NCBI GenBank assembly: GCA_035626155.1
Contig: DASPOF010000027.1
Location: 10,685 to 74,684 of the forward strand
Length of the DNA: 64,000 bases
Reading direction: 5' to 3'
From: Candidatus Binataceae bacterium
GTDB lineage: Bacteria; Desulfobacterota; Binatia; Binatales; Binataceae
Made by a program: the position numbers and the translations under genes. The notes under the pieces are model-generated. The model saw only the letters and a list, made by a program, of their open reading frames with translations. It was not told where the DNA came from and did not search any database. Below, piece by piece: positions 36,073 to 63,585 of the stretch. Numbering within the stretch: position 1 is the stretch's first letter; each line of letters starts with the position of its first letter.

Positions 36073-36326
36073 CGCCCTTTCGATTGGGGCGCACATCCCC
36101 GTAGCGCATCGGCGTTCGTACTTCAGAACAGCAAGTCCGCACCACGTCGAGCTTGAATGCCGGCACCTCGGGAATCGAACGAGATGACTTAGGCCGCGAG
36201 TGCCGGTGCGATAAAGCGATGTTGCGGCGGGGCGGGAAAATCAGGCTTGCCCTGATGGAGCCAATCGACGCGGCCGGTCGCGCGCGGTGAGAACGGGACG
36301 GCGCGAGCGGGAGGCCGGAGCGAACA

Positions 36327-41105: not shown

Positions 41106-41683
41106 TATTGCCTCCCCACAGATTGCGGTCTGTTGTCGTCGCAACTCAGCCGTTAAGCGATCCACCTCGGCGCGGATCCTTGATCGTCTCCCACCGAGGG
41201 ACCACGGAGCCGACGGGCCCGAGCGACTATCTCGGGCGCCGCACGGTCAACTGTGTGCCTGGCGCCATAAATGGAACGACAAAGGATTGAAAATAATCGC
41301 ATGCTGCGTCAAGAGGACTCCGAATCGGTTGCAGCCGCTCACGATCCAGCTCGACGTAAGTCGCCCGCCTTCATCCCAGCGTCGCGACGAACACCGCCAA
41401 TCAGTTTTCAATCGGCAACCGGGATCAGTTTTGCACCGGCGGCAACAACGCAACGCTCGCCGTTTTTTTTCGGTCCGCGCCGAGTTCGTTTTCCGCCTGG
41501 GAACTCAGGCGGTTGGCGGCCCCGTCTAGGGTGAAATTCCCGCCGGCCTCGGACGTTTTTCCCGCCTGCGCTCAAAACCTTTTCCGGGCTCCCTCCGGCG
41601 CCTGCCCAATTAACTAAATCGTTCGAAGCGCCTATGTTGAGAGTCAGAACAAGACAGGAAATGAGTTCAGGAGGTGGACAGAA

Positions 41684-47844: not shown

Positions 47845-49059
47845 ATGACGGCAAAATCTCCTGCCTGGTGGATGGTTCCCCTCCTGGGGGCGATTTTCGT
47901 TGCCTGCCGCGCATCGCCGGCGCCCCGCGCCGAGCTTCAGCCCAGTCAGCCCTGCGAGAAGCTTACCGAGGCGCTCCGGATTCAAGAGCGTCTGGCGCAC
48001 GAGTGTAGTCGCGGGCCCGCGCGGTCCGCCGGACCAGCGGCGCCCACGCGCCCGTGCGGTCCGAAGGACTACTGCTGTTCGGTGGAATATCGGATGCGCA
48101 GCTACGAAGCGGACAAGGCGGTGGATGAGATCGAAGAGCAGATGGGGTCTCAAGGCGCGTCTTGCTATTGCTCGAGAGACCCGGCGCAATGCCACGTGCC
48201 ACAGCCGCGCGAGCTTGAACTTTGCGAAAATGTCGCGCGAACGAATCAGGCGCACGAGAATGCGGAAGCTGCCCTTGAAGAATCAGACAGCGACAACATG
48301 TATGACGTTATTCATACCCCGCCACGGAATGCAGAAGAGGCCGCTTCGCTGAAGCGCTTGAGGGAAGCGAATCAGGCGATCGAGCTAACGGAAAAGGCGG
48401 CCGACGAGGCCGAGGCGGAGGCCTCCGCGCAAGGAATCAATTGCGAGAACATCGTCGAAGGCTGGCGCGCATCGCCGACGCCCTGCGGCGAGCCGGGTCC
48501 GAATCCGCTTTGCGAGAAACTCGCAAAGGCCATGGAGGAAAGTGACGCGCAGAGGCATCAGGAACCTGTGTGCGCCGCGCCGGTTAATACGCAAGGGGCC
48601 GCAGTCATCCAATGGCTACCGTCTTGCCCCGAGTGGACCGATTGGAAGAAGCGCGGCGACGAAGCGCAGCGAGCAATCGATCAGGTCAAGGCGCAGATGA
48701 GGTCGGACGGGACCACCTGTTTTTGCGCTCAACACGGGACGTTGTGGCGCTGCCGGCCGGGCTGCTCTCGCGAAGCTGAACTTTGCAAGCAACTCGACGC
48801 GGCCAACCAAGCGTACTCGCAGGCGATGGCCGGCGCGCACGAGTTCGCGCCCTGCTATTCGCCTTGCGAGCCGATCGGGACCGGCCTTCCGGGGATGCCC
48901 AAGGCACCCGTTGGGATCGCCGACATTCCCGGCGTCGCGCCCTCGGTGATGGAAGAAAAGCGAAGCCGCATCAGGGAAGCGCGTGGTGTGCTCGATGAGG
49001 CCCGGGCCAAGGTGGATGCGGAAAAGTTCGATTGCCAGGGATTCCAGCCGGAACAGTGA
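47845..49059 (+). CDS. Secreted Cys-rich coiled-coil protein with repeated 'P(L)CEKL' modules
   Basis: GGAGGCGAAGGAG RBS, a signal peptide, about 20 Cys and three CEKL/CKQL modules. Related to 20750-21169. Confidence 0.55.
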   Translation: MTAKSPAWWMVPLLGAIFVACRASPAPRAELQPSQPCEKLTEALRIQERLAHECSRGPARSAGPAAPTRPCGPKDYCCSVEYRMRSYEADKAVDEIEEQMGSQGASCYCSRDPAQCHVPQPRELELCENVARTNQAHENAEAALEESDSDNMYDVIHTPPRNAEEAASLKRLREANQAIELTEKAADEAEAEASAQGINCENIVEGWRASPTPCGEPGPNPLCEKLAKAMEESDAQRHQEPVCAAPVNTQGAAVIQWLPSCPEWTDWKKRGDEAQRAIDQVKAQMRSDGTTCFCAQHGTLWRCRPGCSREAELCKQLDAANQAYSQAMAGAHEFAPCYSPCEPIGTGLPGMPKAPVGIADIPGVAPSVMEEKRSRIREARGVLDEARAKVDAEKFDCQGFQPEQ

Positions 49060-49127
49060 CCCGCGCGCCGCGAAGTGCGCGATCAAGAGGCAAGCCCCGC
49101 CGGTAGTGGGCGGGTTTCATTTGCCGT

Positions 49128-49179
49128 CGGTATTCTGAGCCCTCTCCCTATCGCTGGGAGAGGGTGTGGGAGAGGGACC
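49128..49179. repeat. GGGAGAGGG inverted-repeat element, copy C (solo)
   Basis: cggtattctgagccctctccctatcgctgggagagggtgtgggagagggacc; about 90% identical to copy A. Followed at 49180-49214 by a 12-bp perfect hairpin (gcttcgcggcgc...gcgccgcgaagc). Confidence 0.8.
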
Positions 49180-49261
49180 GCTTCGCGGCGCGGATGTCTG
49201 GTGCGCCGCGAAGCTGTGACCGGAGAACTGCGCGGGCAATACTCTTATCGCGCGCTCGCGC

Positions 49262-49864
49262 TTGCGCCGGCGCGCGCGATCGGAAGGGAAGATTCACATC
49301 GCGCGGGTTATTGCGGTGAAACCATCAACTGCTGACCTCATCAAGGGCATCCGACACGACCTAATCGAGGCGCGCAATTGCTTTTCGGTTTACCGTGCCT
49401 ACAAGCTCAAAGAGACGCGCGAAAAATACTCAGACGCGTTTCGGACATTCAAGCCATTCCTTTCGTGCGATCTCCGTGCCCACTTCGCCGCGATGATGGT
49501 GACGCTAGGTCGCATTTTCGACCGGGAACCAAAGTACATTGGAATCGCTGCCTTGCTAAAAGCCGCTCCGCACCTCAAGGACTTGGAACCGGAGAAGTAT
49601 AAGCTCGCGATGGATCTCTGGGCGAGCGAGAAAATAATGCTGCTGCGGCATCAAGTTGTCGCTCACCGCTCGCCTCGCACGGAGAAGATTTTCCAGCTTG
49701 TCGATACATGCCTTGCTGACTTCAGCAAGCTCATTCAGTTGCTAGAGCAGCTGGTCGAAGCGTGGTCCCGAGCAGCCAAGTGCGATATGCGTAATTTGGG
49801 GCCAAAAATGGATCGAGAGGTGGATGACCTCCTGAAAGCTTTGAACCGGGTCTCCAAGGATTAG
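49262..49864 (+). CDS. Hypothetical protein in a low-GC (about 52%) stretch
   Basis: Compositionally atypical against the roughly 66% background and codon-periodic. TTG at the annotated start; the true start is uncertain. Confidence 0.4.
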   Translation: MRRRARSEGKIHIARVIAVKPSTADLIKGIRHDLIEARNCFSVYRAYKLKETREKYSDAFRTFKPFLSCDLRAHFAAMMVTLGRIFDREPKYIGIAALLKAAPHLKDLEPEKYKLAMDLWASEKIMLLRHQVVAHRSPRTEKIFQLVDTCLADFSKLIQLLEQLVEAWSRAAKCDMRNLGPKMDREVDDLLKALNRVSKD

Positions 49865-49948: not shown

Positions 49949-50317
49949 TTACTTCTGGCAGAAACTCCGGACGTAGCCGACCAGGCCCTTGATTTCGGTG
50001 TCATCCAGCCCGTCGGCGTAGCCGGCCATCTTCGGGCTAAGGTCGGCCGCCGGGCCGCCTTCCTTGATCACCTTGAACACGACATCATCGGTGACCCTCG
50101 CCATGCGCGCGCAATCGGTCAGGTCGCCGGGCTTGGTGGCGAGCGTTGAGGCGGCCGGGCCGTCGCCCCGTCCGGATGCTCCGTGGCACTTGACGCACAG
50201 GGTTCTGTAGTTGTCCTTTGCGGCGGCGAGGTCCTCGGCGCGCGCCTGGAATGCGCCGAGCGCAAATACAAACGCCACGAACGTGAGAATACTTAGTCGA
50301 ACAATCAGCGATTTCAT
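49949..50317 (-). CDS. Monohaem class-I c-type cytochrome (c553-like), exported
   Basis: Signal peptide, a single CVKCH motif, and a distal Met region. Paralog of 55802-56185. Confidence 0.8.
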   Translation of the reverse strand: MKSLIVRLSILTFVAFVFALGAFQARAEDLAAAKDNYRTLCVKCHGASGRGDGPAASTLATKPGDLTDCARMARVTDDVVFKVIKEGGPAADLSPKMAGYADGLDDTEIKGLVGYVRSFCQK

Positions 50318-50401
50318 TTCAGCGGTCCTGATTATTTCCCGGCCTTCAACCCCGCTCGATCGAGCGGCTCTTTAAGCTGATGTCCATGATGCATCGAGGG
50401 C

Positions 50402-51733
50402 TCAGCCGGGAGTTTCCTCGGGCAAATAACTCTTGATTCGATCGACGACCTCCGCAACCGCCTGCTCCCTACCCTCGCGCATCTCCCAAATCGAAATGAT
50501 CGGGAAGAGCTTCACGAAGATCGTGTAAAGCAGGATGAAACCCGCGAGGAAGGCGGCAAACAGCGACATCTCGACCCACGACGGGAAATAGAGGCCGCGC
50601 GCCCACGGCAGACGCGGGTTAATCAGCGTCGGCACCACGATCGTGAACCGTTCGAGCCACATCCCGATGCACACCGAGATGGATGCCACCACGATGCCGG
50701 GGATCGTCCGGGTCTTGCGGTTGCAAAGGATGGCGAAGGGGATCACGAAGTCGGTCGCAACCATCGTCCAGAAGAACGCGGCATAGCGGCCCGTGATCTT
50801 CTCCCAAAACACCGCCATCTCCACCGGATCGTGGCCATAGTAAGTCGTGATGTATTCCGCAAACGTGAAATACAGCCAGAGCAGGGTCATCACGAGGAGC
50901 AACTCGCCAAGATAGTCGAAGTGGATTTCCTTCAGGTAATCCTCGAGATGGTACACCTTGCGCAGCAGCGCCATCGTCAGCAGTAGCGCCGCGATACCCG
51001 AATAGATCGCGCCCGCGACGAAGTATGGCCCGAAGATGCTCGAGTGCCACATCGGCTGAATCGTCATCGCGAAGACCCACGAGACGACCGTGTGCACCGA
51101 GACTGCGATCGGGATCACCACGACCGCCAGAATGGCGATCGCGACTTGCAGGGTGCGATGCTGCCGCTCGGAGCCGGTCCATCCCAGCGCCAGCGCCGTG
51201 TAGATCGGCCGGCGCCATCCGCCCGTCCGGTCGCGCAGCAGCGCGATGTCTGGGATCATCGCGACATACAGATAGGTGGTGCTCGTGAAGAGGTAGGTCG
51301 TGATGCTGATCACGTCCCACATCAGCGGCGAGGTGAAATGGCTGTAGCGAAAGACGTAAAGCACGCGGTCGGGGCGCCCGAGGTCGAGCAGGATGTTGCC
51401 CGCGCCGAAAAACAGCACCATCACCGTGATCGTTTCGGCCAGCCGCGTGATCGGCCTGCGCCATTCCGCCTGGCACAGCCTCAGGATCGCGGAGATCAGC
51501 GTCCCGGCATGGCTGATGCCGACGAAGAATACGAAGTTGGTGATGTAGAATCCCCAGTACACCGGCCGGTTGAGGCCGGTCACCCCAAGTCCCTGTTCGA
51601 ACTGGGTGACATACGCATAGACGCCCCACAGCACCGTGCAGATCAGGAGAAACAGCACGGCGTAGTAGAGCTTGCCGGTCTTCAGGACCGGATCGAATAG
51701 CAGCGAATCCTGCTCGCGCGGTTCAGCCTGCAA
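50402..51733 (-). CDS. NrfD-family membrane subunit (ActC/QrcD/PsrC-like)
   Basis: Polytopic NrfD pattern (GLNRPVYWGFYITNFVFFVGISHAG, PLMWDV). Probable TTG start at 51733 preceded by AAGGAAGGTGAG; the annotated ORF (to 51778) would overlap the FeS gene by 55 nt. Confidence 0.8.
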   Translation of the reverse strand: MQAEPREQDSLLFDPVLKTGKLYYAVLFLLICTVLWGVYAYVTQFEQGLGVTGLNRPVYWGFYITNFVFFVGISHAGTLISAILRLCQAEWRRPITRLAETITVMVLFFGAGNILLDLGRPDRVLYVFRYSHFTSPLMWDVISITTYLFTSTTYLYVAMIPDIALLRDRTGGWRRPIYTALALGWTGSERQHRTLQVAIAILAVVVIPIAVSVHTVVSWVFAMTIQPMWHSSIFGPYFVAGAIYSGIAALLLTMALLRKVYHLEDYLKEIHFDYLGELLLVMTLLWLYFTFAEYITTYYGHDPVEMAVFWEKITGRYAAFFWTMVATDFVIPFAILCNRKTRTIPGIVVASISVCIGMWLERFTIVVPTLINPRLPWARGLYFPSWVEMSLFAAFLAGFILLYTIFVKLFPIISIWEMREGREQAVAEVVDRIKSYLPEETPG

Positions 51734-52424
51734 TCCACTCACCTTCCTTGAGATAGATGACATTGGGTTCGGTGCCAAGTTCCTCCATGACCCGGAATGC
51801 CCTGGCGCTTCTCGTGATTTTGGCGATCTCGGTGGTCTGATCCTCGAGGTCGCCGAAATACATGGCCTTTGCCGGGCAGCTCTCCACGCATGCGGGGACG
51901 TATTCGCCCTCGCTGCGGACTTGCCGTTTCTCGATCGCAGCCTGATCGCGGGCCTTTTGCAAGCGCTGGACGCAGAAGGTGCATTTCTCGATCACGCCCT
52001 TGGGCCTGATCGCGACGTCCGGGTTGCGCGGCGGCTTCAACTCGTCGGGCCACTGCGGCGGGAACCAGTTGAAATACTTGACCTGGTAAGGACACGCGCT
52101 CGCGCAGTAGCGGCATCCGATGCACCGGGGATAAATCTGCCCGACGATTCCCTGCTGCGTGCTCTTGTAGGTCGCGCCCACCGGGCAGACCCGCACGCAG
52201 GGAGGCTTGTCGCACTGCTGGCAGAGCATCGGCAGGAACCGCACCCGGGTGTTCGGATAGTCGCCCTCGACAACCGTCAGCACGTTCATCCAGGAAATCA
52301 GCCGCCCGCGATCCGCCTGGTCCTGCGTCGAGGGGGCGATGTTGTTTTCCTGCTTGCACGCGATCATGCAGGCCCGGCATCCCGTGCACTTATCGAGGTC
52401 GATTACCATGCCCCATCGCGGCAT
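51723..52424 (-). CDS. 4x[4Fe-4S] ferredoxin-type subunit (PsrB/ActB2/QrcC-like)
   Basis: Four Cys clusters (CTGCRACMIAC, CQQCDKPPCVRVCP, CIGCRYCASACP, CTFC...CVESCP); no Tat signal of its own. Confidence 0.85.
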   Translation of the reverse strand: MPRWGMVIDLDKCTGCRACMIACKQENNIAPSTQDQADRGRLISWMNVLTVVEGDYPNTRVRFLPMLCQQCDKPPCVRVCPVGATYKSTQQGIVGQIYPRCIGCRYCASACPYQVKYFNWFPPQWPDELKPPRNPDVAIRPKGVIEKCTFCVQRLQKARDQAAIEKRQVRSEGEYVPACVESCPAKAMYFGDLEDQTTEIAKITRSARAFRVMEELGTEPNVIYLKEGEWIAG

Positions 52425-52444
52425 CTGTGCTTCTCCAGTTCCCC

Positions 52445-54820
52445 CTACGCCTTGGACACCCGCACACGCGGGGCCGCGCCGTTAGCCAGCAATTCGAGCG
52501 GATTGACGCCTCTGCCCTTGGCCCATCTGCCCAAAGCCGTATGGCCCTGGCCCAAAGGCAGATTGACCACATTGGGCATCGCGCCCGCGTACAGGAGTGC
52601 GCGAGTCTTCAGTTTTGCCGCCGCGGATTGCACGATCACCCAGTCGCCATTTTCGATTCCGAGCGAAGCCGCGGTCTTCGGATTTATCTCGACGAATGAA
52701 TCCCAGGGCCACACCTGCGGACCGCCGACTATCTCCTGCAGATACGGCAGATTGGCCGATGCGCGGCCCATCAGCGCAATCGGCTGAAAAAGGCAAAGCT
52801 CGAACGGGTAGCCGGACAGATCGCCTCCGCTGAAAATTGGCGAGGACGCCTCGGTCGCGAGCAGACGCGGAAGCTCGAACTTGCCCGACGGAGCTTTCAG
52901 CCCCGCGCGATAATCGCCGTACACGTAGCGCGGATCGACCCATCCGCCATGCGCGAGCAGGCGCTTGACGAAATCATCGCGCGAGCCATATTTCCGCGCC
53001 GGCCAGTCCCAGGCCCTTATCTCGGGCCGCAGATATTCGGTCTGGAAACGTTCCGTGAAGATTTCGCCGTGCGGCGACTCGTAAAGCCCCGTCAGCAACT
53101 CGTTGAGCGCCTGCGAAGGTTCGGTCCATGGGAATGCGCCAGCGACGTCGCCATCGAAGGCGTGCGCGAGATCCAAAACCACTTGCGCGCAAGGACGTGA
53201 TTCATAGCGCGGAGCCAGAACCGGACTCCCGACCGCCACCGAGCTTACCGCAAAGCCGGGACTCGACGTGCGAATCTCCCAGCGTTCGAGCGAGCTGCAC
53301 TCGGGAAGGACGAGATCGGCGTACGCCGCAGTCTCATCGAGCTGCGATGCGAAGCTCACGACGAAGGGGACCTTCGTGATCGTCTCGCGCGGGAAATCGA
53401 GCGATGAGAAGAGCGGATTGGCTCCGAGCAGGAACAGCGCATTGATCTTGTACGGCTGCGACTCCCACACCGCGCGCGCCAGCGATTTGACGCTGTCGAG
53501 CGCCGGCTTCGCGACCGCCTCCGGCTTGACGCCCGCCGAACTCTTGACCGCCGGCCACCACGAAAGCGGAGGCACCGGGCAGGTCAGAACGCCGCCGGGC
53601 TTCTCGATGTTGCCGGCAAGCGCGTTCAATGCCTGGACTGCAACCGAATAGAATGCCGCCGTGCCGCCGGTGAACCTGCGGCCTCCCGCCACGGCCAGCG
53701 AGGGACCGGAAATCGCGAACTCGTGCGCAAGGCGCGTGATGGTCTCGACCTGCACGCCGGTGATTTCCGCGACCTTGGGCGCGTCGTACTCCTGGCTCAG
53801 CAGCGCGCGGAAACCGTTGGGCTGCCCGCTTTCGTTGCCCGGCCACGAGTCGAATCCGGCCACGTGCGCCGCCACAAAGGCGGCATCGTAGAGGTTGTAC
53901 TTGACCAGTGCGTTGGCGATCCCGAGCGCCAGGACGCCCTCCGTGCCCGGATTGACCGGCACCCACTCATCCGCCTTGGCGGCGGTCGCGGACATCCGGC
54001 TCTCGATCTGCACGAGCTTTCCGCGCCGGCCCTCCCAGCCGCCGCGAAATTCCCCGATCGCTCTCATCTGGCGCACCGGCGACATCGCCTCGAACATTGG
54101 TGCTCCGAAACTCAGGATGTATCGCGCGTTTTCGAAATCGTACGCGACTCGCCCGTTGATGCCCTGCGTGATGTCCTGCCCATCCGACGGCGCCGCATCC
54201 GCCTCGAAGATGAAGTTGGGCGAGCCGTACACGTCGAGGAATCGCGCCATCAGACGCCCGGCGAGCTCGGATGTCCCGCTGCTCAGAGCCGCGACTGTGT
54301 GCGCTGCGCCGCCGGTGCGCAGATCGGCGAGCTTCGCCTTGATCGTCGCGATCGCCTCGTCCCAGGAAATCTCCTGCCAATTGCCGGCGCCGCGCTCGCC
54401 CACGCACTTCAGCGGCGACCTTACCCGGTCCGGGCCGTACACCAACTGAAGCGCCGCCTGCCCGACCGGGCACAAAGCGCCCTGGTTGACCGGGTCCAGC
54501 GGGTTCCCCTCGACTTTGATCGCCCACTCGCCGCGCTTGAGCCCGTCCGAGCCGAGCTTGCGCACAATCGTTCCGCATCGCGCCGGGCATAGCCCGCATA
54601 GCGATACGATGCGCGATTCGGGGCCGTGCTCCGGGAAGTCCTCCTGCGGAACGACGTTGAGCGCTTGCGCTGCCGCGCCCAGACCGACCGCGGAACCGGC
54701 GCCCAGCGCGGCCGTGCCCAGCCCGACCATCTTGAGGAAGTCGCGCCGGGCGACAGCGTGCTCGTTGCCGCTCGATGCGCCCGTGGCGCCCCGTTGGTTA
54801 TTTTTACCGCCGCTTGTCAT
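52445..54820 (-). CDS. Molybdopterin-oxidoreductase (CISM/DMSO-reductase family) large subunit with Tat signal (PsrA/PhsA/TtrA/ActB1/QrcB-like)
   Basis: Tat motif ARRDFLKMVGLGTAALGAG and N-terminal FS0-type CX2CX3C (LCGLCPARCG). About 790 aa from the ATG at 54820, which overlaps the upstream pentahaem stop (ATGA). Confidence 0.8.
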   Translation of the reverse strand: MTSGGKNNQRGATGASSGNEHAVARRDFLKMVGLGTAALGAGSAVGLGAAAQALNVVPQEDFPEHGPESRIVSLCGLCPARCGTIVRKLGSDGLKRGEWAIKVEGNPLDPVNQGALCPVGQAALQLVYGPDRVRSPLKCVGERGAGNWQEISWDEAIATIKAKLADLRTGGAAHTVAALSSGTSELAGRLMARFLDVYGSPNFIFEADAAPSDGQDITQGINGRVAYDFENARYILSFGAPMFEAMSPVRQMRAIGEFRGGWEGRRGKLVQIESRMSATAAKADEWVPVNPGTEGVLALGIANALVKYNLYDAAFVAAHVAGFDSWPGNESGQPNGFRALLSQEYDAPKVAEITGVQVETITRLAHEFAISGPSLAVAGGRRFTGGTAAFYSVAVQALNALAGNIEKPGGVLTCPVPPLSWWPAVKSSAGVKPEAVAKPALDSVKSLARAVWESQPYKINALFLLGANPLFSSLDFPRETITKVPFVVSFASQLDETAAYADLVLPECSSLERWEIRTSSPGFAVSSVAVGSPVLAPRYESRPCAQVVLDLAHAFDGDVAGAFPWTEPSQALNELLTGLYESPHGEIFTERFQTEYLRPEIRAWDWPARKYGSRDDFVKRLLAHGGWVDPRYVYGDYRAGLKAPSGKFELPRLLATEASSPIFSGGDLSGYPFELCLFQPIALMGRASANLPYLQEIVGGPQVWPWDSFVEINPKTAASLGIENGDWVIVQSAAAKLKTRALLYAGAMPNVVNLPLGQGHTALGRWAKGRGVNPLELLANGAAPRVRVSKA

Positions 54821-55395
54821 TTGTGACACGAGATGCAGTCCGTCGATGCCTGGCGCTGCTGATGGCAGTTCATGCACCAGTCCATCGACTGATTTATCGC
54901 CGGACGGACCGGAGGCGAAGTCAAGCTGGTCATATCGCCGTGGCAGGTTGCGCACTCGACTTTCCCGATCACGACGTGCCGGCGATGCGAGAAGAAGACG
55001 TAGTCGGGCTGTCCATAGACCCTGTTCCACGGAATCCACCCGGCTGCCGCAAAGTCTTTGAGCTTCGCAAGCTCCGGCTTGGCAGCGAGCTTCGCCGCCG
55101 TCATCCGCTTGATGATCCTGTGGCAGCTCATGCAGGTATCCGGCTGCGGGATCCCGGCGAAGGTCTCTTTCTCCACCGTCTCATGGCAACTCGTGCAGGC
55201 GATGCCGTTCTTGCCGGAAACGTGACGGTGATGGTCGAAAGCGATCGGCTGTTCAACGGCAGGCGTATACCGCAGGCACGCCGATGCTAACAGGGCGAGC
55301 CCGCCGCCAAGCAAAGCAAGCCCGACAGCCGCCGATCGCCAGCGCACCAATCGGCCTGCAAGGCGCCCGATTGGATCTGATTTGGACATCCTCAC
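54817..55395 (-). CDS. Membrane-anchored pentahaem c-type cytochrome (ActA/NrfB/NapC-like)
   Basis: N-terminal TM helix plus 5 CXXCH motifs (CTSCH, CMSCH, CATCH, CMNCH, CISCH). Confidence 0.8.
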   Translation of the reverse strand: MRMSKSDPIGRLAGRLVRWRSAAVGLALLGGGLALLASACLRYTPAVEQPIAFDHHRHVSGKNGIACTSCHETVEKETFAGIPQPDTCMSCHRIIKRMTAAKLAAKPELAKLKDFAAAGWIPWNRVYGQPDYVFFSHRRHVVIGKVECATCHGDMTSLTSPPVRPAINQSMDWCMNCHQQRQASTDCISCHK

Positions 55396-55801
55396 GCAGC
55401 TCCTGCGCTAACGTTCCACCCGGGGCATTTGGGGGAAAACCGCGGCGGCGCTCCCTGCCGATATCGCGGCCACCGTGTCCGTCTGCATCATGACTCTTTT
55501 CGCGTCTCCTGCCCCGCCTAATGCAACTGGTGTACCCGGATAAGTGATCCTTAAAATCCCGAAATATCTGGGCCTTTCTCCCTGGCCCCGCGAACCAACT
55601 GTTGCCTTTGACTCCAGCACAGTTGGCGACGGTGGCGCGTTCGGACTCACAAGCGACAGCGTGTACGGCAGTCTAGCGGCTCACTCAAATCGGGGCTCGA
55701 CCCGCTACTTTTTCGCGGGAGCCCAAGTCCGCTAGTTCGCGTGGGAGGGCCCGCCGCCCTCGATCTCAACCCGGGTCAGTATGCCCTCCGGCTTTTGGCG
55801 A

Positions 55802-56185
55802 TCACTTCTTGCAGAAGCTCCGCAGGTAGCCGACCAAGCCCTTGATGTCGGCGTCGCTCATCCCGTCGCCGAAGGGAGGCATCGCCGCGTTCAAGTTCGC
55901 CGCCGGTCCGCCTTCCTTGATAACCTTGAAGATGGTGTCATCGGTGACCTTCGACATCTTCGCGCAATCGGTAAAGTCACCCACCTTCGCTGAGAGCTTC
56001 GAGGCGCTGGGGCCATCGCCCTTGCCGGTCTGGCCGTGGCAGTCTGCGCATGAATCCGTGTAAGTGGCCTTCGCATCGGCCGATGCGGGCGCCGCTCTGA
56101 GAACCAGCGCGAGCGTTGCCGCTGCGGGCAGTGCGACAAGCATCCAACCCATCGATCTCACTTTCGTCCCCGAATAATTCGGCAT
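55802..56185 (-). CDS. Monohaem class-I c-type cytochrome (paralog of 49949-50317)
   Basis: ATG at 56185 with a GGAGG RBS, a signal peptide and CADCH. The C-terminus (KVTDDTIFKVIKEGGPAANL...IKGLVGYLRSFCKK) is near-identical in pattern to its paralog. Confidence 0.75.
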   Translation of the reverse strand: MPNYSGTKVRSMGWMLVALPAAATLALVLRAAPASADAKATYTDSCADCHGQTGKGDGPSASKLSAKVGDFTDCAKMSKVTDDTIFKVIKEGGPAANLNAAMPPFGDGMSDADIKGLVGYLRSFCKK

Positions 56186-56520
56186 GACACCTCCGTCCTT
56201 TCTCGCCGTGTGATTTACGGACAGGGACGCCGCAGGATATTCGGTTCCTGCCGGCATCGCCCTGGCCGACTGTTTAATCGCGGTCCTATGTATCACCCCA
56301 TGTGCGGTCCGGTCCAGCGGCGGAGCCCGCACTTCAGGGCAACAAACGACGGGATTCTAGGGTTGTAAGCCCGCGCCGTCAAGGAAAGGCGGCATCGGGC
56401 GAAGCGCCTGTTTGTTGGAGAGGCTTCGACTGATGCGAGCCGCACCGTGCATCGCGCGCTCGGACATTGCCGCGCTCCCGCGTTCCCCCTACGGCTCGCC
56501 GCGGATGCGAAACGCGCGTC

Positions 56521-58194
56521 TTAAGGGAAGTAATCTTCCGGCTCGGTGCCGACGACGGGAAATTTAAGGCCTTTGATTGAAAAATCCTTATGGGCGAAAA
56601 GCCCGGCGATCCTGTCTCCGTAAATCAATTTCCAATCAGGGTCCATATTCAGCAAGATCCAGCGGTTGGATAACGTATCCACGATGGCATAGTCATGCTT
56701 ATAGGCCTTGAGCATGTGCTCGGGATCGCCCTCGCTCGATTCGAAGACGAAATAGTCATTGATCACTTGATCAGGGTAGACCGTATCGTAGCGGCCGTCG
56801 ATGAATACCTTGCTGTCAGGTGAAAGATGCCAGATGAGATACTCGCCCCAATTGTAAATTGAGAGGACATTGCCGTGCAGATGGTGCTCTTTCATGAAAT
56901 CCACGGCGCCGACCGGAGATGGCACCATGGGTTCGAGCACCGGGGAGAAGAGCGCGTTGTAGATCAGCAGGACCGCAGCGACGGCGGCGAATAGCTGGCC
57001 CAGATACTCCCGGCTGGAGTGCTCAGGCTCGCCGGTTGCCCCGGCCGCCAAGCCCTCTCGCGCCGTCGCTCGCCGCGCGGGCCGGCTTGACGCGCGAGCC
57101 GATCGTTGCTGCCAGGCCAGCCCCACGTGACGCGCCAGCGGGATGGTCGTCGCGATCACCGCAAGCGGCAGGTTCCGCATCGCGGTCAGCGCCGCAATCG
57201 AAAATACGATCGCGATCGCCACCAGCGGCAGATCCTTGCCGCGCGGCGCGAGCGCGACCGCGATAACCAACGCGAGCAGGAACCCCACCGCCTCGACGAA
57301 CAGGAGCGCGGCCGGCACGGCAATCTTCCACACTTCGGCGACGGTGCTGGTAAGCGGCTTCCAGTCGTTGATCACCTTGTGCGTCAGCGGATTAGTCAGT
57401 GCGTGCAAGACTGCGTACCAGGCTCCGATACCATAAGGATTGACCAGGGTCGCGAGCAGCGACGCGATTACTATCGCGATCAGGTAAGCGGCGCGCCGCC
57501 AGTCCCGGCTTTCGATCACCGCCTGGCTGGACCCGACTGCTGCATAGATGCCAATTGCTCCCAGCCCCGCGATATAGGCGCCGTGGAAGTTCGCCCATAG
57601 CGCCATCATCGGTATCACCAGCCACAGTGGCCCGGCGCGGCGATAGCTGTCGCGCGCCAGCAGCCACATAAGCGCGGCCATCAGGGTGAAGCTGAAAAGC
57701 TGCGGCCGCAGCATCATCTGCGACGCCATAGCCGGGGCGGTCAGCATTATAACCGCAGCCTGGATCGGCGCGATTACCTGGGTCTCTGCCAGCGCGAGAG
57801 CCAGAAACAGAACCATCATCGCGCTGAAGCAGAACTTGACCAGTTCGAGCCCGAACACGCGGCCGGCGTTGTAGGCGATCGCGAATACCACCTCGGAAAG
57901 CCACTCGTGATTGCGCCACAGATGGCCCGGCGCCGAGTAGGAATACGGATCGTATTCAATCATGTGCCCGGCCTTCAGCATCGCCTGGCCGAAGCGGATG
58001 TGGCCCCACAGATCGGAATCGGCGAACGTAAAAGCGTCGACGACGGCGATCGCGAGCAGCAGGTACATCGATGGGTAGCCGAACCACGACGCGGCACGGC
58101 TCAGCACCGATGGGGACTCAACGGCCGCAATGGGCCCCGGCGCCATCTCCCGGTGCTCTCTACGTTCCGCCTTGAGCCGCTGCGCCTTGGACAT
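56521..58194 (-). CDS. Polytopic membrane protein with C-terminal soluble domain (GT-C-like glycosyltransferase?), hypothetical
   Basis: About 10 predicted TM helices in the N-terminal 330 aa, a Pro/Arg/Ala-rich linker and a roughly 150-aa C-terminal domain. No confident family assignment. Confidence 0.45.
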   Translation of the reverse strand: MSKAQRLKAERREHREMAPGPIAAVESPSVLSRAASWFGYPSMYLLLAIAVVDAFTFADSDLWGHIRFGQAMLKAGHMIEYDPYSYSAPGHLWRNHEWLSEVVFAIAYNAGRVFGLELVKFCFSAMMVLFLALALAETQVIAPIQAAVIMLTAPAMASQMMLRPQLFSFTLMAALMWLLARDSYRRAGPLWLVIPMMALWANFHGAYIAGLGAIGIYAAVGSSQAVIESRDWRRAAYLIAIVIASLLATLVNPYGIGAWYAVLHALTNPLTHKVINDWKPLTSTVAEVWKIAVPAALLFVEAVGFLLALVIAVALAPRGKDLPLVAIAIVFSIAALTAMRNLPLAVIATTIPLARHVGLAWQQRSARASSRPARRATAREGLAAGATGEPEHSSREYLGQLFAAVAAVLLIYNALFSPVLEPMVPSPVGAVDFMKEHHLHGNVLSIYNWGEYLIWHLSPDSKVFIDGRYDTVYPDQVINDYFVFESSEGDPEHMLKAYKHDYAIVDTLSNRWILLNMDPDWKLIYGDRIAGLFAHKDFSIKGLKFPVVGTEPEDYFP

Positions 58195-58297
58195 CGCCGC
58201 CTACCGCTCTTTGCGGCAGGGCTCGCCTGGACAGGCTTCTGCCGTTATCAGAATTGCCTCGATCACAAAGCAATGCTAAGGCGGCGGCGGGTGTCGC

Positions 58298-60130
58298 TCA
58301 ATACTTCTTGGGGTTGTGGTCCACGCCGTGGCACTTGAGATAGCAGCTACCATGGCCGCCCAAGCCCGGTGCCGGGTCGAACTCGAGCCGCCCGCTGCTC
58401 GAACGCCTCACCACGGGGGCGCCCGTCTTCGACATGATCATGAAATTGATCAAGCGGGGGCTGCGCTGCGAACCGTGCGGGTCGTGACAGACCGCACACG
58501 AGGTCTGATTCTGGACGACGTGCTTTTGGTGCGGGAAATGCCCGCTGCCGAACAGAAGCGTCGAGCGATTATGGCATGTGTAGCACAGAGCGTAGCTGGA
58601 CATTGACTCCAGGTATGGGTCGTCGGTCTCGTACTCCTGCGCCAGGATCGGCGCCCATCGCGAACCGTGCGGACCCTTGGGACTCGAACCGGCCGGCGTC
58701 CACCGGTCATTGTTGTGACAGTCGATGCACGAAATGATGCTCGATGCGGTGTAGCCCGCCTCGAGGCCGGCGATCGTCGGGTCCTTGCCCTGCGTCACTA
58801 TCGGATGGAATGACTGGTTGGTGGGACGGATTTTCATCCGGATGTTGCGGGTCGTGTCCTGGCGAACTATTCCCGGGGTGGTCGGCTCGGCGATTCCGTG
58901 GCACTTGAGACAGATTTCGTATTCGTGGCTGGCCTGCTGGACGTAGGTGCCGGACATACCTACGCCGGAAACTCCGAACAGCGGCCCCGAAGTGATGAAT
59001 GTTATCTTGCTGGCGGCCCGCATCGAGCTTTCGGACTTGGAGGCGCTTCCCGCCGCGTGCGGATTGTGGCAATCCGCACACGTAACGTGACGCGCCATGC
59101 TCAGAGGGTCTTCCTTCGGTTTGTGATTCCACTGCTTGCTCAAGATCGGGTGACTGGACGGAAGCAGGAGCTGCTGCGCGATGTTCTTTTGCGCCATCGT
59201 GCCGTCGTGGCAGATGGTGCAATTCGACGGTTCATCGGTCTGCGCGAGCAGCCATTCCGGATGGGGCGCGGCGTGCGGGCGATGACAACTGAGGCAGGCG
59301 TTCTCCGCCACGGTTCCGTATCCGTCGGCGGGGAACGGATTTTTGCCGCCGGCCTTCCACCGGGCGTTGGAGGTGGCGTGGCTTGAGACCGTCCAGCCCG
59401 TCATCTTATGGCATAGCGTACATTGAGCGGAGTAGCGGTTGTCCGTCCGCAGGAAGTTCGGCCACCGGGTCTCGTGCGGGTCGTGACAGGTCGAACACTG
59501 AAGATCCGTGGCGTCTTCCAGGGGAGCCGTGCGGGGTAGCGCCGAAGGTTGGGCCAGCTCGCCTGCTTTCGCGGCCAGAGAGTTATTGTAAACGAACGAA
59601 ATCGGATGGCTCCCCGAGAGGTCCGTTCCGAGCACGGTATTGCCGGTGAGCTGCCCCAGGGTAAGTATTCCGTTCTTTGGTGGGACTCGCACCTTGCTGA
59701 GCGCGATCACCCCATCATGGCACGACAGGCACAGGCGCGACGTTCCGGTGGGCTGGCTCAGCGTCGCCTGCATCGTGCTGCTTTCATACAGCTTGTAGGT
59801 TACAGCCGGCATCTGGCGGTTCCACAGGCCGCGGGTCGGCTTCGCGTCATGCGGAGTGTGACAGTACACGCACACGCCCGACTGCACCTTCTTTTCCCGG
59901 ATTTTCCCCGGCCCCAAGGGGGTCAGATTGTGGACGGTATTCGTGATATCGCCCTGGACGCCGACACGCGTCGATACTGCGCCGGCACTCTCCGATTGTG
60001 CGCCCGCGCGCGCCGGCCAAAGCAACGCGCAGACGGCCGCGATGAGCAGGGTCCCTGTCAACAGGCGCCCTGGTGAGCCGCCCCCGTGTCTGCGAGCAGG
60101 GCTCCGTCTCCGTTGCGTAACAATCATCAT
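58298..60130 (-). CDS. Dodecahaem c-type cytochrome, exported (11 CXXCH + 1 CX3CH)
   Basis: Signal peptide; 11 CXXCH motifs plus CYLKCH near the C-terminus. 610 aa. Confidence 0.8.
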   Translation of the reverse strand: MMIVTQRRRSPARRHGGGSPGRLLTGTLLIAAVCALLWPARAGAQSESAGAVSTRVGVQGDITNTVHNLTPLGPGKIREKKVQSGVCVYCHTPHDAKPTRGLWNRQMPAVTYKLYESSTMQATLSQPTGTSRLCLSCHDGVIALSKVRVPPKNGILTLGQLTGNTVLGTDLSGSHPISFVYNNSLAAKAGELAQPSALPRTAPLEDATDLQCSTCHDPHETRWPNFLRTDNRYSAQCTLCHKMTGWTVSSHATSNARWKAGGKNPFPADGYGTVAENACLSCHRPHAAPHPEWLLAQTDEPSNCTICHDGTMAQKNIAQQLLLPSSHPILSKQWNHKPKEDPLSMARHVTCADCHNPHAAGSASKSESSMRAASKITFITSGPLFGVSGVGMSGTYVQQASHEYEICLKCHGIAEPTTPGIVRQDTTRNIRMKIRPTNQSFHPIVTQGKDPTIAGLEAGYTASSIISCIDCHNNDRWTPAGSSPKGPHGSRWAPILAQEYETDDPYLESMSSYALCYTCHNRSTLLFGSGHFPHQKHVVQNQTSCAVCHDPHGSQRSPRLINFMIMSKTGAPVVRRSSSGRLEFDPAPGLGGHGSCYLKCHGVDHNPKKY

Positions 60131-61203
60131 GAGCTTTGCTTCGGATTCGCCTGCGGCCGCTCGGAGGTGCCCAGGAATTCGAAAACCTGAATTCGCCGGT
60201 TAAACGAATCGGCCACGTAGATCCGATCCTGGCGGTCGATGAATGCTCCCTCGGGAAGCCAGAACTTCCCGGGCGCGGTTCCTCGATCTCCAAAGGAAAG
60301 GAGCAGGCCACCCTCCGCGTTGAATATCTGTACCGTGTCAAACAGCGCATCGACCACGTAAAGATGTCCGTCGCTGTCGGCTGCGACCCCTTTGGGCGAG
60401 GCGAAATCACCGGAGCCGTCGCCCTCATGACCGATCTTCCAGAGGAATTTGCCGTCGCGATCGAAGGCCTGGACACGGTAGTTGAGCGCGTCGGTCACGA
60501 GCAGCACGCCCGATCGCTCGAGGGCGAGATAGCTCGGAAAATTGAACTCTCCGTCGCCGAGTCCTCTGCTGCCCCACGCCGTAACGCGCGCACCGTCCGA
60601 GGTGAAAACGTCGATGCGCTGGCCGGCCGAATCCGCCACGTAGAGACGATCGTTGGTCTCGTCATAGGCGAGCGCGGCCGGCCGCTCGATGCCGTCTTCA
60701 GCCACCGTCCGCAGGAATTTGCCCTCGCGATCGAGGAGAAAAACTTTCTTCAGATACGAGTCCGCCACAAAGAAGGAGCCGTCCGGCCGGACGGCGACCG
60801 CCACCGGCGACACCAGGTTGGCGCCATTGACGCTAGTAATTGTCGCCGAGCGCTGATTGGCGGGATCGAAGATCCACACCGCCTGCGCTCCCGAATCGGC
60901 GACATAGAGCAGGCCATCGCGCTCGGCGATGCCGGTGGGCCGGATCAGGTGGCCGGCCTTCTTGCCTGTGACCGCGTCAACGAGCCGCCCGAAAAACGAC
61001 TTCTCGATTCCGAGGTCGCGCGGCTCAGCAATCGTGCGCACGAAACGGATCCGCGCGGCAGCCGGTGGCGGCGGCCACACCATCCGGTCGTACGCTCCCG
61101 CGCTGGCAGGCGCCGGAGCCTCACCGGCTCGATTCGATGCCTGACAACCTGCGCCGATCAGAACGAGCGCCGCCGCCAGTGCCGTTTCAACCCATCGACG
61201 CAT
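60127..61203 (-). CDS. NHL-repeat (six-bladed beta-propeller) lipoprotein
   Basis: Lipobox LIGAGC and repeated LYVADS/FFVADS/LLVTD/LYVVD blades. ATGA overlap with the dodecahaem gene. ATG at 61203. Confidence 0.75.
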   Translation of the reverse strand: MRRWVETALAAALVLIGAGCQASNRAGEAPAPASAGAYDRMVWPPPPAAARIRFVRTIAEPRDLGIEKSFFGRLVDAVTGKKAGHLIRPTGIAERDGLLYVADSGAQAVWIFDPANQRSATITSVNGANLVSPVAVAVRPDGSFFVADSYLKKVFLLDREGKFLRTVAEDGIERPAALAYDETNDRLYVADSAGQRIDVFTSDGARVTAWGSRGLGDGEFNFPSYLALERSGVLLVTDALNYRVQAFDRDGKFLWKIGHEGDGSGDFASPKGVAADSDGHLYVVDALFDTVQIFNAEGGLLLSFGDRGTAPGKFWLPEGAFIDRQDRIYVADSFNRRIQVFEFLGTSERPQANPKQSS

Positions 61204-61213
61204 CGGAACCCGC

Positions 61214-63265
61214 TCAGAACAATATCCTGACCACTCTGATTTGAACCAACAGGTCGTTGGTGGTTGTGGTGGAAAACGTGCGCCGATACCACGATAGAGA
61301 TGGTAAGAACTGCAGTTTTCCAATTGTGTATGTCATCTGGGCGCCGACCTCGACCTGCTTTGTGGTGGGAATTTGGCTATCTTCGACCTCGCTCATAATC
61401 GCGAACATCGACGCCCGTCCGCGCTCTCCAATGGGACGATCTCCGCTGAGTTGGAAGGCATAGGTTTTGGTCTGGTGCCGCGGCAGGGTGTAGTCCATGA
61501 AGGTTTCACTTGCGCTCGCAGCGAGTACGGCCTCCCAGCCCGGCCGAGCAGTGACGGCCTGCGAAAGCATGGTCGAATTAAAAGATACGCTGGTCGAATC
61601 CACCGTTTGGTACGTCGCGTCAGCCCTGGCCCCAAAAGTTTCCCATTCATGATGGACACCACCGCTAACGCTGTTGGCCGTCGAGGATTCGAGAAACTGA
61701 GAACCCGTACCGCTCAGCAGGTTCTGGCTGATCGCCTGGTATGAGTACGACAAATAGAACCATGGATAAGTGACCCCGACGGTAACCTGTCTCGTGCTCG
61801 TGGAAAATTTGGATTTGGCCGGCACCTGGTAGTTGTAGCTGACAAGCAGGGGGTCTCCCGGGTGAATGATCAGACTGGTAGGCAGCGGAACGATCTCGGT
61901 CTGATTGCCGATCTGAAGGACATCGTAATCCACGTTCAGCACCGTGGGGACTCTGCCGTGGGCGACATCCACCATCACGATACTGTTGGCAATAACAAAG
62001 GTATTATTCAGGAAAAAGCCGAGGTTGGTCCCGAATATCGGCGGCGCAGTGTGCGATTCGTCAGTCACGTGAATCACAGAAGACGATATATCATCGTCCT
62101 CGATCCCGTATACGCCATTGGTGTCCAGAAAAAACATGCCGTTCCAGGGGAGCGTGTGAGTATAGTCGCTCTCCGCGCCGACCCAGTAGTTAGTGATGGT
62201 GCCCGTCGGCACCGTTTCGCGTATGAAGCCCAGGATCAGACTCTCATTAAGGTTCCGGAACATGCTCTGCAACAACGTGAACTGCCCGTACTGATAAGTG
62301 GTAACCCCGTAGTCTGGAACATCGTTGTACTGGAACTGGTACTGATAGGTAGTTGAAAGGTTCTGGTAGTGATCGATGCGCAGCACCTCGTTGAGCGAAA
62401 GGAATTCCTGCGAACCGCTCGTCCCGGATAGCGTGTAACCATAAATGTCCGAGTTCAACGATCGATTCAGGTCCGGACCGAAATCCAGAAAGTAGCTGAG
62501 GCCGGCGACGTTGGTCTGAAATCCGGAATGAGTGGTCCCGGTCAGGTGGTCATTGTCGAACTCGTAGTGAAACATGAGATCGGCGGTCTGAAAGCCCTTG
62601 TTCGCGACGTAACTGACGACATCATGCTGCTCGTCGAGCTGGAACGTTTCACCGAGCTGCGTGGTTTTCTGGTCGAAGTTTTGCGCGACGGCCGAGAGCC
62701 TGGAAGTGAAATAAGACACTCCCAGGCCTCTCAGGAAGCTGTCTTCCAGGACCTGCGCCGTCATGCCGTAGTTCATGGTGTCGGTGGTGGTGTGGCCGCC
62801 GAACGTGGTGTTCAAGTAGGTCTGGCTTTGATTGGCAAACAGCGTACCGTTTTCGGGCCACAGTGGCAGGACCGCCGCCGAAACGTCGTAGCCCCAGAGC
62901 AGTCCATCTTCATAGAGGCCTTTGCCTTCCGAAAAATTGTCCTGCTCCTGGTACAGGTCCAGATCGACTGCCGCATCCATCGTGATGAGGCGCGGATCGA
63001 TGATATAGATGCCGTCGTTTCGGAGTTTCAGCCGCTCGTCCCAACGATAGTCCTGTGCGGTGAGCGTGGACGAGGGAGTGCTGGATTCCTGATTCTCGAA
63101 CTGAAACCCACCTTCCACCTGTCCTTGCCATTCCCCGAGCTGCACGTCACCTTCGTAATCCTGGAACGAGAAAGCGAGCGCGCCGCCCGCAGACAGCAAA
63201 ATCGCCGCAAGCATCGATGCCAGCAGGAGCAGGCCGGATAGTCGCGCGTTCGCTATTGATGGCAT
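61214..63265 (-). CDS. Large outer-membrane beta-barrel protein (porin-like, 683 aa)
   Basis: Signal peptide, alternating amphipathic Ser/Thr/Tyr-rich strands and a C-terminal ...VVRILF with terminal Phe. GC content is lower than its neighbours. ATG at 63265 (GTG at 63274). Confidence 0.6.
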   Translation of the reverse strand: MPSIANARLSGLLLLASMLAAILLSAGGALAFSFQDYEGDVQLGEWQGQVEGGFQFENQESSTPSSTLTAQDYRWDERLKLRNDGIYIIDPRLITMDAAVDLDLYQEQDNFSEGKGLYEDGLLWGYDVSAAVLPLWPENGTLFANQSQTYLNTTFGGHTTTDTMNYGMTAQVLEDSFLRGLGVSYFTSRLSAVAQNFDQKTTQLGETFQLDEQHDVVSYVANKGFQTADLMFHYEFDNDHLTGTTHSGFQTNVAGLSYFLDFGPDLNRSLNSDIYGYTLSGTSGSQEFLSLNEVLRIDHYQNLSTTYQYQFQYNDVPDYGVTTYQYGQFTLLQSMFRNLNESLILGFIRETVPTGTITNYWVGAESDYTHTLPWNGMFFLDTNGVYGIEDDDISSSVIHVTDESHTAPPIFGTNLGFFLNNTFVIANSIVMVDVAHGRVPTVLNVDYDVLQIGNQTEIVPLPTSLIIHPGDPLLVSYNYQVPAKSKFSTSTRQVTVGVTYPWFYLSYSYQAISQNLLSGTGSQFLESSTANSVSGGVHHEWETFGARADATYQTVDSTSVSFNSTMLSQAVTARPGWEAVLAASASETFMDYTLPRHQTKTYAFQLSGDRPIGERGRASMFAIMSEVEDSQIPTTKQVEVGAQMTYTIGKLQFLPSLSWYRRTFSTTTTNDLLVQIRVVRILF

Positions 63266-63585
63266 AGCGCGCACTTCTCGAAGCTCGACGCCGCGAAGGC
63301 GGTTTTCCCGTTATGGCAGGCGCCGCAGAACTTGCCGTTGCCAATCGCGTCCATGGAGATTTCGTCAGCGCCCCGCTTCATCTTGAACAGCGAGTCGTGG
63401 CACGCGTAACACTTGTAGAGCACCCGGTGCAGCGTGTGAGGGAATGCGGCGGGCGGAAATTGCTCGCCCCCAGTCGGCGTGCCCTTGCGCGGAAGTATCA
63501 AATCACCCGGGGCGGCCATCGCCGCGCCGCCGAGCGCGATCAGCAGCAGTCCCACGGCGCAAAGCGCCAGAACTCCGCGCGTCAT
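63253..63585 (-). CDS. Trihaem periplasmic c-type cytochrome (c7/c3-like)
   Basis: Signal peptide plus CYACH, CGACH and CALCH in about 85 mature residues. Confidence 0.7.
   Translation of the reverse strand: MTRGVLALCAVGLLLIALGGAAMAAPGDLILPRKGTPTGGEQFPPAAFPHTLHRVLYKCYACHDSLFKMKRGADEISMDAIGNGKFCGACHNGKTAFAASSFEKCALCHQ

Follow-up and report, generated by a model that had tools for sequence, protein, structure and literature searches.

A six-gene operon of Candidatus Binataceae predicted to encode a molybdenum-free relative of Alternative Complex III and Qrc that retains the FS0 cysteines

Alternative Complex III (ACIII) and Qrc are textbook respiratory complexes built on a molybdoenzyme scaffold from which the cofactor has been lost, and ActB and QrcB are established cofactor-less descendants of molybdoenzymes (PMC13059093, PMC6303296, PMC8076601). 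Clusters with a split ActB (actAB1B2CDEF) have been described in the Fe(II) oxidisers Ferriphaselus, Sideroxydans, Gallionella and Mariprofundus (Kato et al. 2015, PMC4643136); their ActB1 carries a CX2CX3CX27C motif and the clusters have been assigned to an 'ACIII-Qrc clade' (PMC4643136). In an MBNT15 genome, ACIII-like clusters have been noted that include an ActE-like protein with four haems (PMC9386147). Here we describe a six-gene operon at positions 49949-56185 (minus strand) of a 64,000-nucleotide stretch of a Candidatus Binataceae genome (contig DASPOF010000027.1, positions 10,685 to 74,684), hereafter the window. It encodes a pentahaem cytochrome c, a large subunit resembling molybdopterin oxidoreductases, an iron-sulfur (FeS) protein and an NrfD-type membrane protein, bracketed by two monohaem cytochromes c. 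Canonical actABCDEFG genes have been reported in the Binatota (PMC8262859), and the window cluster therefore represents an additional complex. Most likely it is a distinct and widespread branch of the ACIII/Qrc superfamily, and we think it reasonably probable that it acts as a membrane-bound, molybdenum (Mo)-free quinol:cytochrome c oxidoreductase with the N-terminal cluster FS0 and four further [4Fe-4S] clusters.

The six co-directional genes have the coordinates first described, and a Pfam profile search with all six operon proteins confirmed every domain. Relatives of the large subunit were collected by scanning one genome per species, which gave at least 575 matching loci; the locus comparisons below refer to the 80 best of these, all 80 from uncultured sources. 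The order pentahaem cytochrome, Mo-like subunit, FeS protein and NrfD is found in about 65 of the 80 and in more than eight phyla, including Thermodesulfobacteriota, Aminicenantes, Acidobacteriota, Planctomycetota, Gemmatimonadota, Nitrospinota and Binatota, while loci without the pentahaem gene are mostly from Chloroflexota (Anaerolineae, Anaerolineales, Ardenticatenales). Since the identical gene order recurs in dozens of genomes, the six genes are a real, conserved operon and not chance open reading frames (ORFs), and the module is present in hundreds of uncultured species of many phyla. The nearest relatives among the matches listed are from Candidatus Binataceae and Binatus soli, with 56-58% identity in the large subunit and 78-80% in the FeS and NrfD proteins; the exact FeS protein is also present in JGI, ENA and Logan metagenome assemblies, and identical genes are present in peat samples such as JGI 3300018086.

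The preliminary description of this DNA had read the operon as an ACIII- or Qrc-like complex with separate B1 and B2 genes, flanked by paralogous monohaem cytochromes and with an FS0 cysteine motif in its Mo subunit. The gene order, the homologies to ActA, ActB2 and ActC, the relationship of the two cytochromes and the four FS0 cysteines all agree with that account; the Mo subunit is indeed a protein with a twin-arginine translocation (Tat) signal, although it has 791 residues rather than the 790 given. The suggestion that this is not a standard ACIII also stands, as no actD or actF is adjacent: there is neither room nor an ORF for them in the window operon, and neither gene was seen among the 80 related loci. 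The clusters of the Fe(II) oxidisers differ in this respect, as they include actD, actE and actF and the window has none of the three. The other NrfD paralogues of the window (30337-31629 and 34876-36072) were considered as candidates for ActF and rejected, as both match ActC and not ActF (1e-27 to ActC for the former). Likewise, the 404-codon ORF at 47845-49059 (plus strand) has no similarity to NrfD and no Pfam match.

Solved structures were compared by phmmer searches of Protein Data Bank (PDB) chains, with ACIII represented by the structures from Rhodothermus marinus (6F0K), Roseiflexus (6LOD), Chloroflexus (8K9E) and Flavobacterium (6BTM), and NCBIfam profiles (QrcA-D, PhsA, ArrA, TtrA and DmsA/YnfE) were scored against their curated cutoffs. 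The large subunit is closest to ArrA (7e-48) and PsrA (9e-40), with ActB1 at only 7e-12. An AlphaFold2 model (predicted local distance difference test, pLDDT, 82; predicted TM-score 0.85) is likewise placed by Foldseek best on ArrA and PsrA, at TM-scores of 0.70-0.75 (0.74 for ArrA), with ActB outside the top 50. The top NCBIfam match is QrcB, at 295.6 bits against a cutoff of 440, and the cutoffs of the catalytic families are missed by wide margins (bits/cutoff: PhsA 288/694, ArrA 184/1600, TtrA 84/1750, DmsA/YnfE 145/778). The protein carries an RRDFLK Tat motif, conserved in at least 90% of relatives.

Cysteines 75, 78, 82 and 117, the four of FS0, are invariant in alignments of 39 and then of 81 family members (39/39 and 81/81), and the large subunit is predicted from them to bind a [4Fe-4S] cluster. 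In this it departs from ACIII, whose ActB1 domain is devoid of cofactors and lacks the fourth cysteine in all four structures (GATGVFEQA and similar), and from Qrc, as QrcB is reported to be without any redox cofactor (PMC13059093). The split ActB and the FS0 motif are shared with the Fe(II)-oxidiser clusters as these are described, with the x27 spacing found in relatives of the window protein. The window protein itself has CX34C in place of the CX27C seen elsewhere; it alone among the 39 aligned relatives carries a 7-residue insertion, GSDGLKR (residues 90-96, 54493-54513), between the third and fourth cysteines, where the model is of low confidence (pLDDT about 64).

A different picture is seen at the positions that would hold the molybdenum cofactor. 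In HMMER alignments with PsrA and ArrA, the ligand Cys173 of PsrA (SVSLCTAP, the position verified by counting) and the ligand cysteine of ArrA (SSVCAEA) fall opposite a 3-residue gap in the window protein, and the loop FIFEADAAPSDGQ contains no cysteine at all. Across the family this block is hypervariable, the least conserved stretch of a region that is well conserved elsewhere. Two positions beyond the fourth FS0 cysteine, PsrA and ArrA have Arg and 64 of 81 relatives have Lys or Arg; the window protein (after Cys117-Pro) and its closest Binataceae relatives have Val. The VVVVDPR of PsrA and ArrA becomes LVQIESR, so that the DPR motif reads ESR, and the cofactor-less ActB1 proteins have IES or ES at this same position (vIESt, aESt, fESn). 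At 92 alignment columns ArrA, PsrA and two cysteine-bearing relatives are identical; the window protein deviates at 23 of these, and at most of the 23 the remaining family retains the enzyme residue. The substrate motifs of ArrA (RGRY and HSSVCAEAHK) and His145 of PsrA are not conserved either. By these comparisons degeneration has gone furthest in the window clade.

The two cysteine-bearing relatives, each about 38% identical, are encoded in a Rokubacteria metagenome-assembled genome (MAG; L042, 1305-3725) and in an Anaerolineae MAG (L046, 10043-12466). They keep an HSSIC(A/S)DG Mo-ligand motif, a GRY motif, the Lys after the fourth cysteine and PGTD, and their best NCBIfam match is ArrA, under its cutoff. 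Probably they are still catalytic members beside the degenerate family, at a similar sequence distance, and they provide a useful evolutionary anchor. Scores with the ArrA model fall from 464 and 450 bits in L042 and L046 to 307 in a typical Thermodesulfobacteriota member (L007) and to 184 and 182 in the window and a Binataceae relative (L001), and scores with the QrcB model stay at 294-331 across all three groups.

Given the gap at the ligand cysteine, the Val, the ESR and the 23 deviating columns, we infer that the large subunit quite probably binds FS0 but no Mo-bis(pyranopterin guanine dinucleotide) (Mo-bisPGD). The preliminary description had taken the retained FS0 motif to indicate a genuine polysulfide, thiosulfate, tetrathionate or arsenate reductase, and had named alignment of the Mo-ligand region with enzymes such as PsrA as the comparison that could overturn this. 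The alignment largely gives the cofactor-less outcome, and the missing ligand cysteine, the Val, the ESR and the falling scores with the catalytic models all run counter to a reductase. An arsenate reductase is rejected for the absence of the RGRY and HSSVCAEAHK motifs of ArrA.

Compared with the solved structures, the pentahaem cytochrome, NrfD and the FeS protein are clearly of the ACIII type. The pentahaem cytochrome matches ActA chains at 7.8e-27 (8k9e_A) to 2.4e-18, with 6f0k_A at 1.5e-19, and its five CxxCH motifs are complete in 63 of 64 sequences; the QrcA model gives 84.7 bits (cutoff 180). NrfD matches ActC at 2e-72 (6lod_C) and 4e-71 (6f0k_C), in an alignment spanning ActC residues 35-452 of 471, and ActF at only 8e-14; the QrcD model gives 44 bits (cutoff 570). 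The FeS protein matches the C-terminal half of ActB at 1.3e-57 and the QrcC model at 311 bits (cutoff 400). All 16 of its cysteines are present, with CIGCRYC in place of the CIGTRYC or CVGTKYC of the ACIII structures, in which the Thr marks the [3Fe-4S] site, and it is therefore predicted to carry four [4Fe-4S] clusters, as against one [3Fe-4S] and three [4Fe-4S] in ACIII; QrcC also has a [3Fe-4S] cluster (PMC6303296). The cysteine in question, Cys104, is retained in 66 of 76 relatives and is Val in the other 10 (L043, L047, L049-L051, L057, L059, L063, L068 and L075, mostly Syntrophaceae and Thermodesulfobacteriota MAGs). For these a [3Fe-4S] cluster like those of ACIII and Qrc is predicted, apparently through a parallel change inside the family.

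The FeS protein has no signal peptide of its own, and so the subunit with the Tat signal is presumably needed for its export, the FeS protein presumably hitch-hiking upon it. In NrfD, the quinol-site and proton-path residues named for ActC (R. marinus numbering, PMC8076601) are partly kept: Asp169 in 68 of 68 family members, Glu394 in 67 and Arg395 in 66 of the 68.

The two monohaem cytochromes share 52% identity (E = 9e-43). Both carry cleavable signal peptides of the AxA type (that of the upstream protein ends ASA-DA), so they are taken to be soluble periplasmic paralogues. ActE is lipid-anchored; no lipobox is present in either window cytochrome, and similarity to ActE is weak, at E values of 0.03-0.5 (0.03-0.04 for the downstream copy). 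Orthologues of both lie at equivalent positions in Binataceae loci L001-L004 and L084, and flanking on both sides is confined to the window and these Binataceae loci among the 80; monohaem proteins of this family are present in 19 loci. In 42 loci a tetrahaem protein of about 406 residues, with four class-I cytochrome c repeats, directly follows NrfD. Between the window monohaem proteins and this tetrahaem partner the similarity seen was confined to the haem motif, and the two were not equated. Judged from its description, the four-haem ActE-like protein of MBNT15 is comparable to the tetrahaem protein, and both the MBNT15 and the Fe(II)-oxidiser clusters are associated with gene sets for iron or extracellular electron transfer, as the window operon appears to be. 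With either tetrahaem or monohaem class-I partners in the loci, a class-I c-type cytochrome is a conserved part of the system.

By its sequence features the complex is thus neither canonical ACIII nor Qrc. Like ACIII it has an ActA-like pentahaem cytochrome, a Tat-dependent Mo-like module without a Mo ligand and with ES replacing the DP of the DPR motif, an FeS module, a monohaem c partner and an ActC-like NrfD with Asp169 and Glu394/Arg395; unlike ACIII its B1 and B2 are separate genes, and its NrfD has Asp for His139 and a hydrophobic residue for Asp253. With Qrc it shares the four-subunit architecture of multihaem c (A), Mo-like B, FeS (C) and NrfD (D), with a B subunit predicted to be Mo-free; however, all four subunits fall under the NCBIfam cutoffs, there are five haems where QrcA has six, and the window offers no sulfate-reduction context. 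Standard Qrc is rejected for the QrcD score and the haem count. The large-subunit fold, FS0, the Tat signal, the four-[4Fe-4S] partner and the NrfD-type anchor are common to PsrABC/PhsABC and ArrAB(C), but the window lacks their Mo-ligand Cys, the Lys/Arg after the fourth cysteine and the ArrA/PsrA active-site residues, adds pentahaem and c-type cytochrome partners, and has a longer NrfD of the ActC type. The split actB1/actB2 with CX2CX3CX27C in ActB1 was already known (PMC4643136). New here are the loss of the ligand Cys, of the FS0-pterin Lys/Arg and of DPR together with retention of FS0 and of the fourth Cys at the site equivalent to [3Fe-4S], the distinct quinone-pocket signature seen throughout the family, the lack of ActD and ActF, and the breadth of the family. 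The family appears to capture an intermediate state: it has lost the Mo ligand and retains FS0 and all four [4Fe-4S] clusters, B1 and B2 remain distinct genes, and the membrane subunit is of the ActC type.

In the most likely scenario, quinol binds the ActC-like NrfD at its periplasmic face and is oxidised there. The electrons would pass to the four [4Fe-4S] clusters of the FeS subunit, cross the five haems of the ActA-like cytochrome, which is anchored in the membrane, and leave by the soluble monohaem class-I cytochromes c whose genes bracket the operon. The large subunit would be a former catalytic subunit of the Arr/Psr type that has most likely lost Mo-bisPGD and kept FS0; it could serve as the Tat carrier for the signal-less FeS protein, as a scaffold, and as the distal end of the FeS wire. 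Because genes for a multihaem cytochrome and porin-like proteins adjoin the operon, the cytochromes c may feed extracellular or periplasmic acceptors instead of, or besides, an oxidase, and the complex is a candidate for the quinol-oxidising step of extracellular electron transfer in bacteria of soil and peat. Both this path and its direction are inferred; that class-I c-type cytochromes are the conserved partners favours flow from quinol to cytochrome c. Automated pipelines label the large subunit as a "molybdopterin-dependent oxidoreductase" or an "anaerobic selenocysteine-containing dehydrogenase", and such proteins may therefore be miscounted as potential for sulfur, arsenic or selenium respiration in metagenome surveys, a miscount that the quinol:cytochrome c reading, as the most probable, would correct.

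Several features weigh against this proposal. Fold and sequence place the large subunit nearer to the active enzymes ArrA and PsrA than to ActB1, it retains motifs of active enzymes (NP, DET, LP..LE.W, PGTE and the domain IV barrel), several of which ActB1 keeps too, and the invariance of FS0 needs a reason. Ser212 (PS.GQ), conserved only in the nearest subclade of the window protein, could in principle be a non-canonical Mo ligand, and arsenite oxidase binds Mo-bisPGD without any protein ligand. In the FeS subunit four [4Fe-4S] clusters are predicted where ACIII and Qrc place a high-potential [3Fe-4S] beside the quinol site, and two of three quinol-site residues of ActC are changed in NrfD, His139 to Asp in 65 of 68 members and Asp253 to Val, Ile or Leu in 68 of 68 (Val in the window). 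The all-[4Fe-4S] chain and the two altered residues weaken the assignment of both direction and quinone type. One alternative is a true Mo- or W-bisPGD enzyme with a non-Cys ligand or no protein ligand, coupled to the pentahaem quinol dehydrogenase and acting on a sulfur, arsenic or other periplasmic substrate. It would account for the invariant FS0, the Tat signal and the fold nearest to ArrA and PsrA, and it could draw on Ser212, on the canonical HSSIC(A/S)DG and GRY of L042 and L046 at similar distance, and on the many distant members that retain Lys/Arg after the fourth cysteine and have EPR for DPR. We consider it decidedly unlikely, as the window protein has neither Cys nor selenocysteine in a shortened and hypervariable ligand loop, has Val at the FS0-pterin position and lacks the conserved ArrA motifs and PsrA His145, its scores lie far under all catalytic-family cutoffs, and it belongs to the most degenerate clade; in addition, no chaperone of the TorD/DmsD type stood out among the 14 commonest conserved flanking families, none of which was tested against profiles.

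The other alternative concerns direction. The complex may work as Qrc does, as a cytochrome c:quinone reductase with a Mo-free large subunit, in an electrogenic mode or in reverse electron flow, with electrons from Fe(II) by way of the adjoining multihaem and porin-like proteins or from H2 or formate, the donors being periplasmic or extracellular. QrcA, QrcB and QrcC are the top curated-model matches of three subunits, the quinone site of NrfD is unlike that of ACIII, and the window is dense in multihaem cytochromes and has a putative porin-cytochrome cluster. All-[4Fe-4S] chains such as the one predicted here are typically low-potential. It has moreover been proposed that, in Fe(II) oxidisers, ACIII-like clusters with an FS0-bearing ActB1 serve an uphill flow of electrons (PMC4643136). 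However, NrfD is ActC-like and not QrcD-like, the haems number five and not six, the window has no genes for a hydrogenase or a formate dehydrogenase and no dsr genes, and the class-I, His/Met-type partners, usually of high potential, suit an acceptor better than a donor in quinone chemistry; we therefore regard this direction as rather unlikely, though a serious rival. It is also possible, if quite unlikely, that FS0 makes the former catalytic subunit a second site of electron entry or exit, either as a cofactor-free docking funnel or as a Mo/W enzyme with a non-canonical or absent protein ligand and a periplasmic substrate. As a docking funnel it would form a branched wire, from quinone to the pentahaem and cytochrome c and from quinone through FS0 to a partner, and in either version the complex would be a living intermediate between reductases of the Arr/Psr type and ACIII/Qrc.

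Coordinates of the operon genes and associated features (window positions)
Feature	Position	Strand	Details
Upstream monohaem class-I cytochrome c	55802..56185	-	127 aa, one CADCH, Pfam Cytochrome_CBB3 7.7e-13
Pentahaem cytochrome c, ActA-like, with N-terminal hydrophobic anchor	54817..55389	-	190 aa, five CxxCH
Tat molybdopterin-oxidoreductase-like subunit (ActB1/QrcB analogue)	52445..54820	-	791 aa; Pfam PF04879, PF00384, PF01568
FS0 cluster motif	54470..54598	-	Cys75-x2-Cys78-x3-Cys82-x34-Cys117
Degenerate Mo-ligand loop, residues 203-218, FIFEADAAPSDGQDIT	54167..54214	-	no Cys; shorter than in PsrA/ArrA
FeS subunit, ActB2/QrcC-like	51723..52424	-	233 aa, 16 Cys
NrfD quinone-interacting membrane subunit, ActC-like	50402..51733	-	443 aa from TTG; 453 aa if ATG 51763
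Downstream monohaem class-I cytochrome c	49949..50317	-	122 aa, soluble, signal peptide ends ARA-ED
Promoter-like site TTGACG-17-TAGAAT	56354..56382	-	10/12 matches; 5' of first cytochrome c; weak

The ATG of the large subunit overlaps the stop codon of the pentahaem gene as ATGA. The gap of about 400 nt between the first cytochrome c and the pentahaem gene holds no credible ORF, those present looking non-coding, and an alternative, shorter start of that cytochrome c lies at 56152. Public gene calls place the start of NrfD at the ATG at 51763. The TTG start overlapping the end of the FeS gene, which had been proposed earlier, is plausible: it is preceded by AAGGAAGGTGAG, overlaps the 3' end of the FeS gene by 11 nt and coincides exactly with the GTG start of four Binataceae orthologues (VENRDSEQDAILFEP as against LQAEPREQDSLLFDP), and for this coincidence it is accepted here. 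A scan for promoters and terminators gave nothing above chance, and the number of promoter-like sites in the region is not over the shuffled expectation.

In many Thermodesulfobacteriota loci an extra, conserved trio of genes lies just 5' of the pentahaem gene, encoding a tetrahaem cytochrome of 173 aa, an NrfC-like FeS protein of about 301 aa with a Tat signal, and a distantly related NrfD of about 422 aa (25% identity); these loci include L007-L009, L013, L014, L016, L026, L027, L033, L040, L041, L045 and others. The arrangement suggests a two-module super-operon.

Directly upstream of the window operon and on the same strand are four genes (56521-63274) for a 557-aa protein without a Pfam match, a 610-aa cytochrome with 11 CxxCH and one CxxxCH and MtrC/OmcA-like domains, an NHL beta-propeller protein whose N-terminus is lipobox-like, and a protein of 686 aa, also without a Pfam match, whose last residues are RILF. 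Outer-membrane barrels typically end in Phe, and the four genes look like a porin-cytochrome cluster for extracellular electron transfer. A Binataceae-like contig of 324 kb has an equivalent accessory gene set around its copy of the operon.

Among the other genes of the window, 31822-38417 (plus strand) encodes a NapC/NirT-like cytochrome of 512 aa with 6-7 haems, a cytochrome with 8 haems, proteins resembling the FeS protein NrfC (249 aa) and NrfD (398 aa), a cytochrome with 11 haems and a cytochrome b561, a second quinone-module cluster that resembles the Cbc-type complexes of Geobacter. At 26145-31629 (plus strand) are a histidine kinase, a sigma54 response regulator, small ORFs of 139, 82 and 68 aa, of which two are hydrophobic, and an orphan NrfD of 430 aa, which is 35% identical to the operon NrfD and has the same Asp/Asp/hydrophobic/Glu-Arg signature. 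A similar set is present on a Binataceae-like contig (L084, 15017-20444), where an NrfD gene, ORFs of 60, 86 and 127 aa and response regulator and histidine kinase genes adjoin the ACIII-like operon divergently. By analogy, the orphan NrfD and its small ORFs could be functional counterparts of ActF and ActD.

In the stretch that separates the operon from the next cytochrome genes, 47845-49864 (plus strand) contains a 200-aa ORF of the AbiU2-type HEPN family and the 404-aa ORF, which is Cys-rich and secreted-looking; they sit where other Binataceae have the divergent NrfD, and the arrangement is no assembly artefact, as it is shared by independent metagenome contigs (L081). The segment 43226-47620 (minus strand) encodes a CbcL-like pair (45.9-47.6 kb), made up of a 354-aa cytochrome with nine haems and a C-terminal transmembrane helix and of a cytochrome b561-like membrane protein; genes for a HAMP/HisKA_3 kinase and a response regulator of the LuxR type come next. 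Finally, we note a sulfatase-family protein of 858 aa (38589-41165, minus strand) lying among the respiratory clusters.

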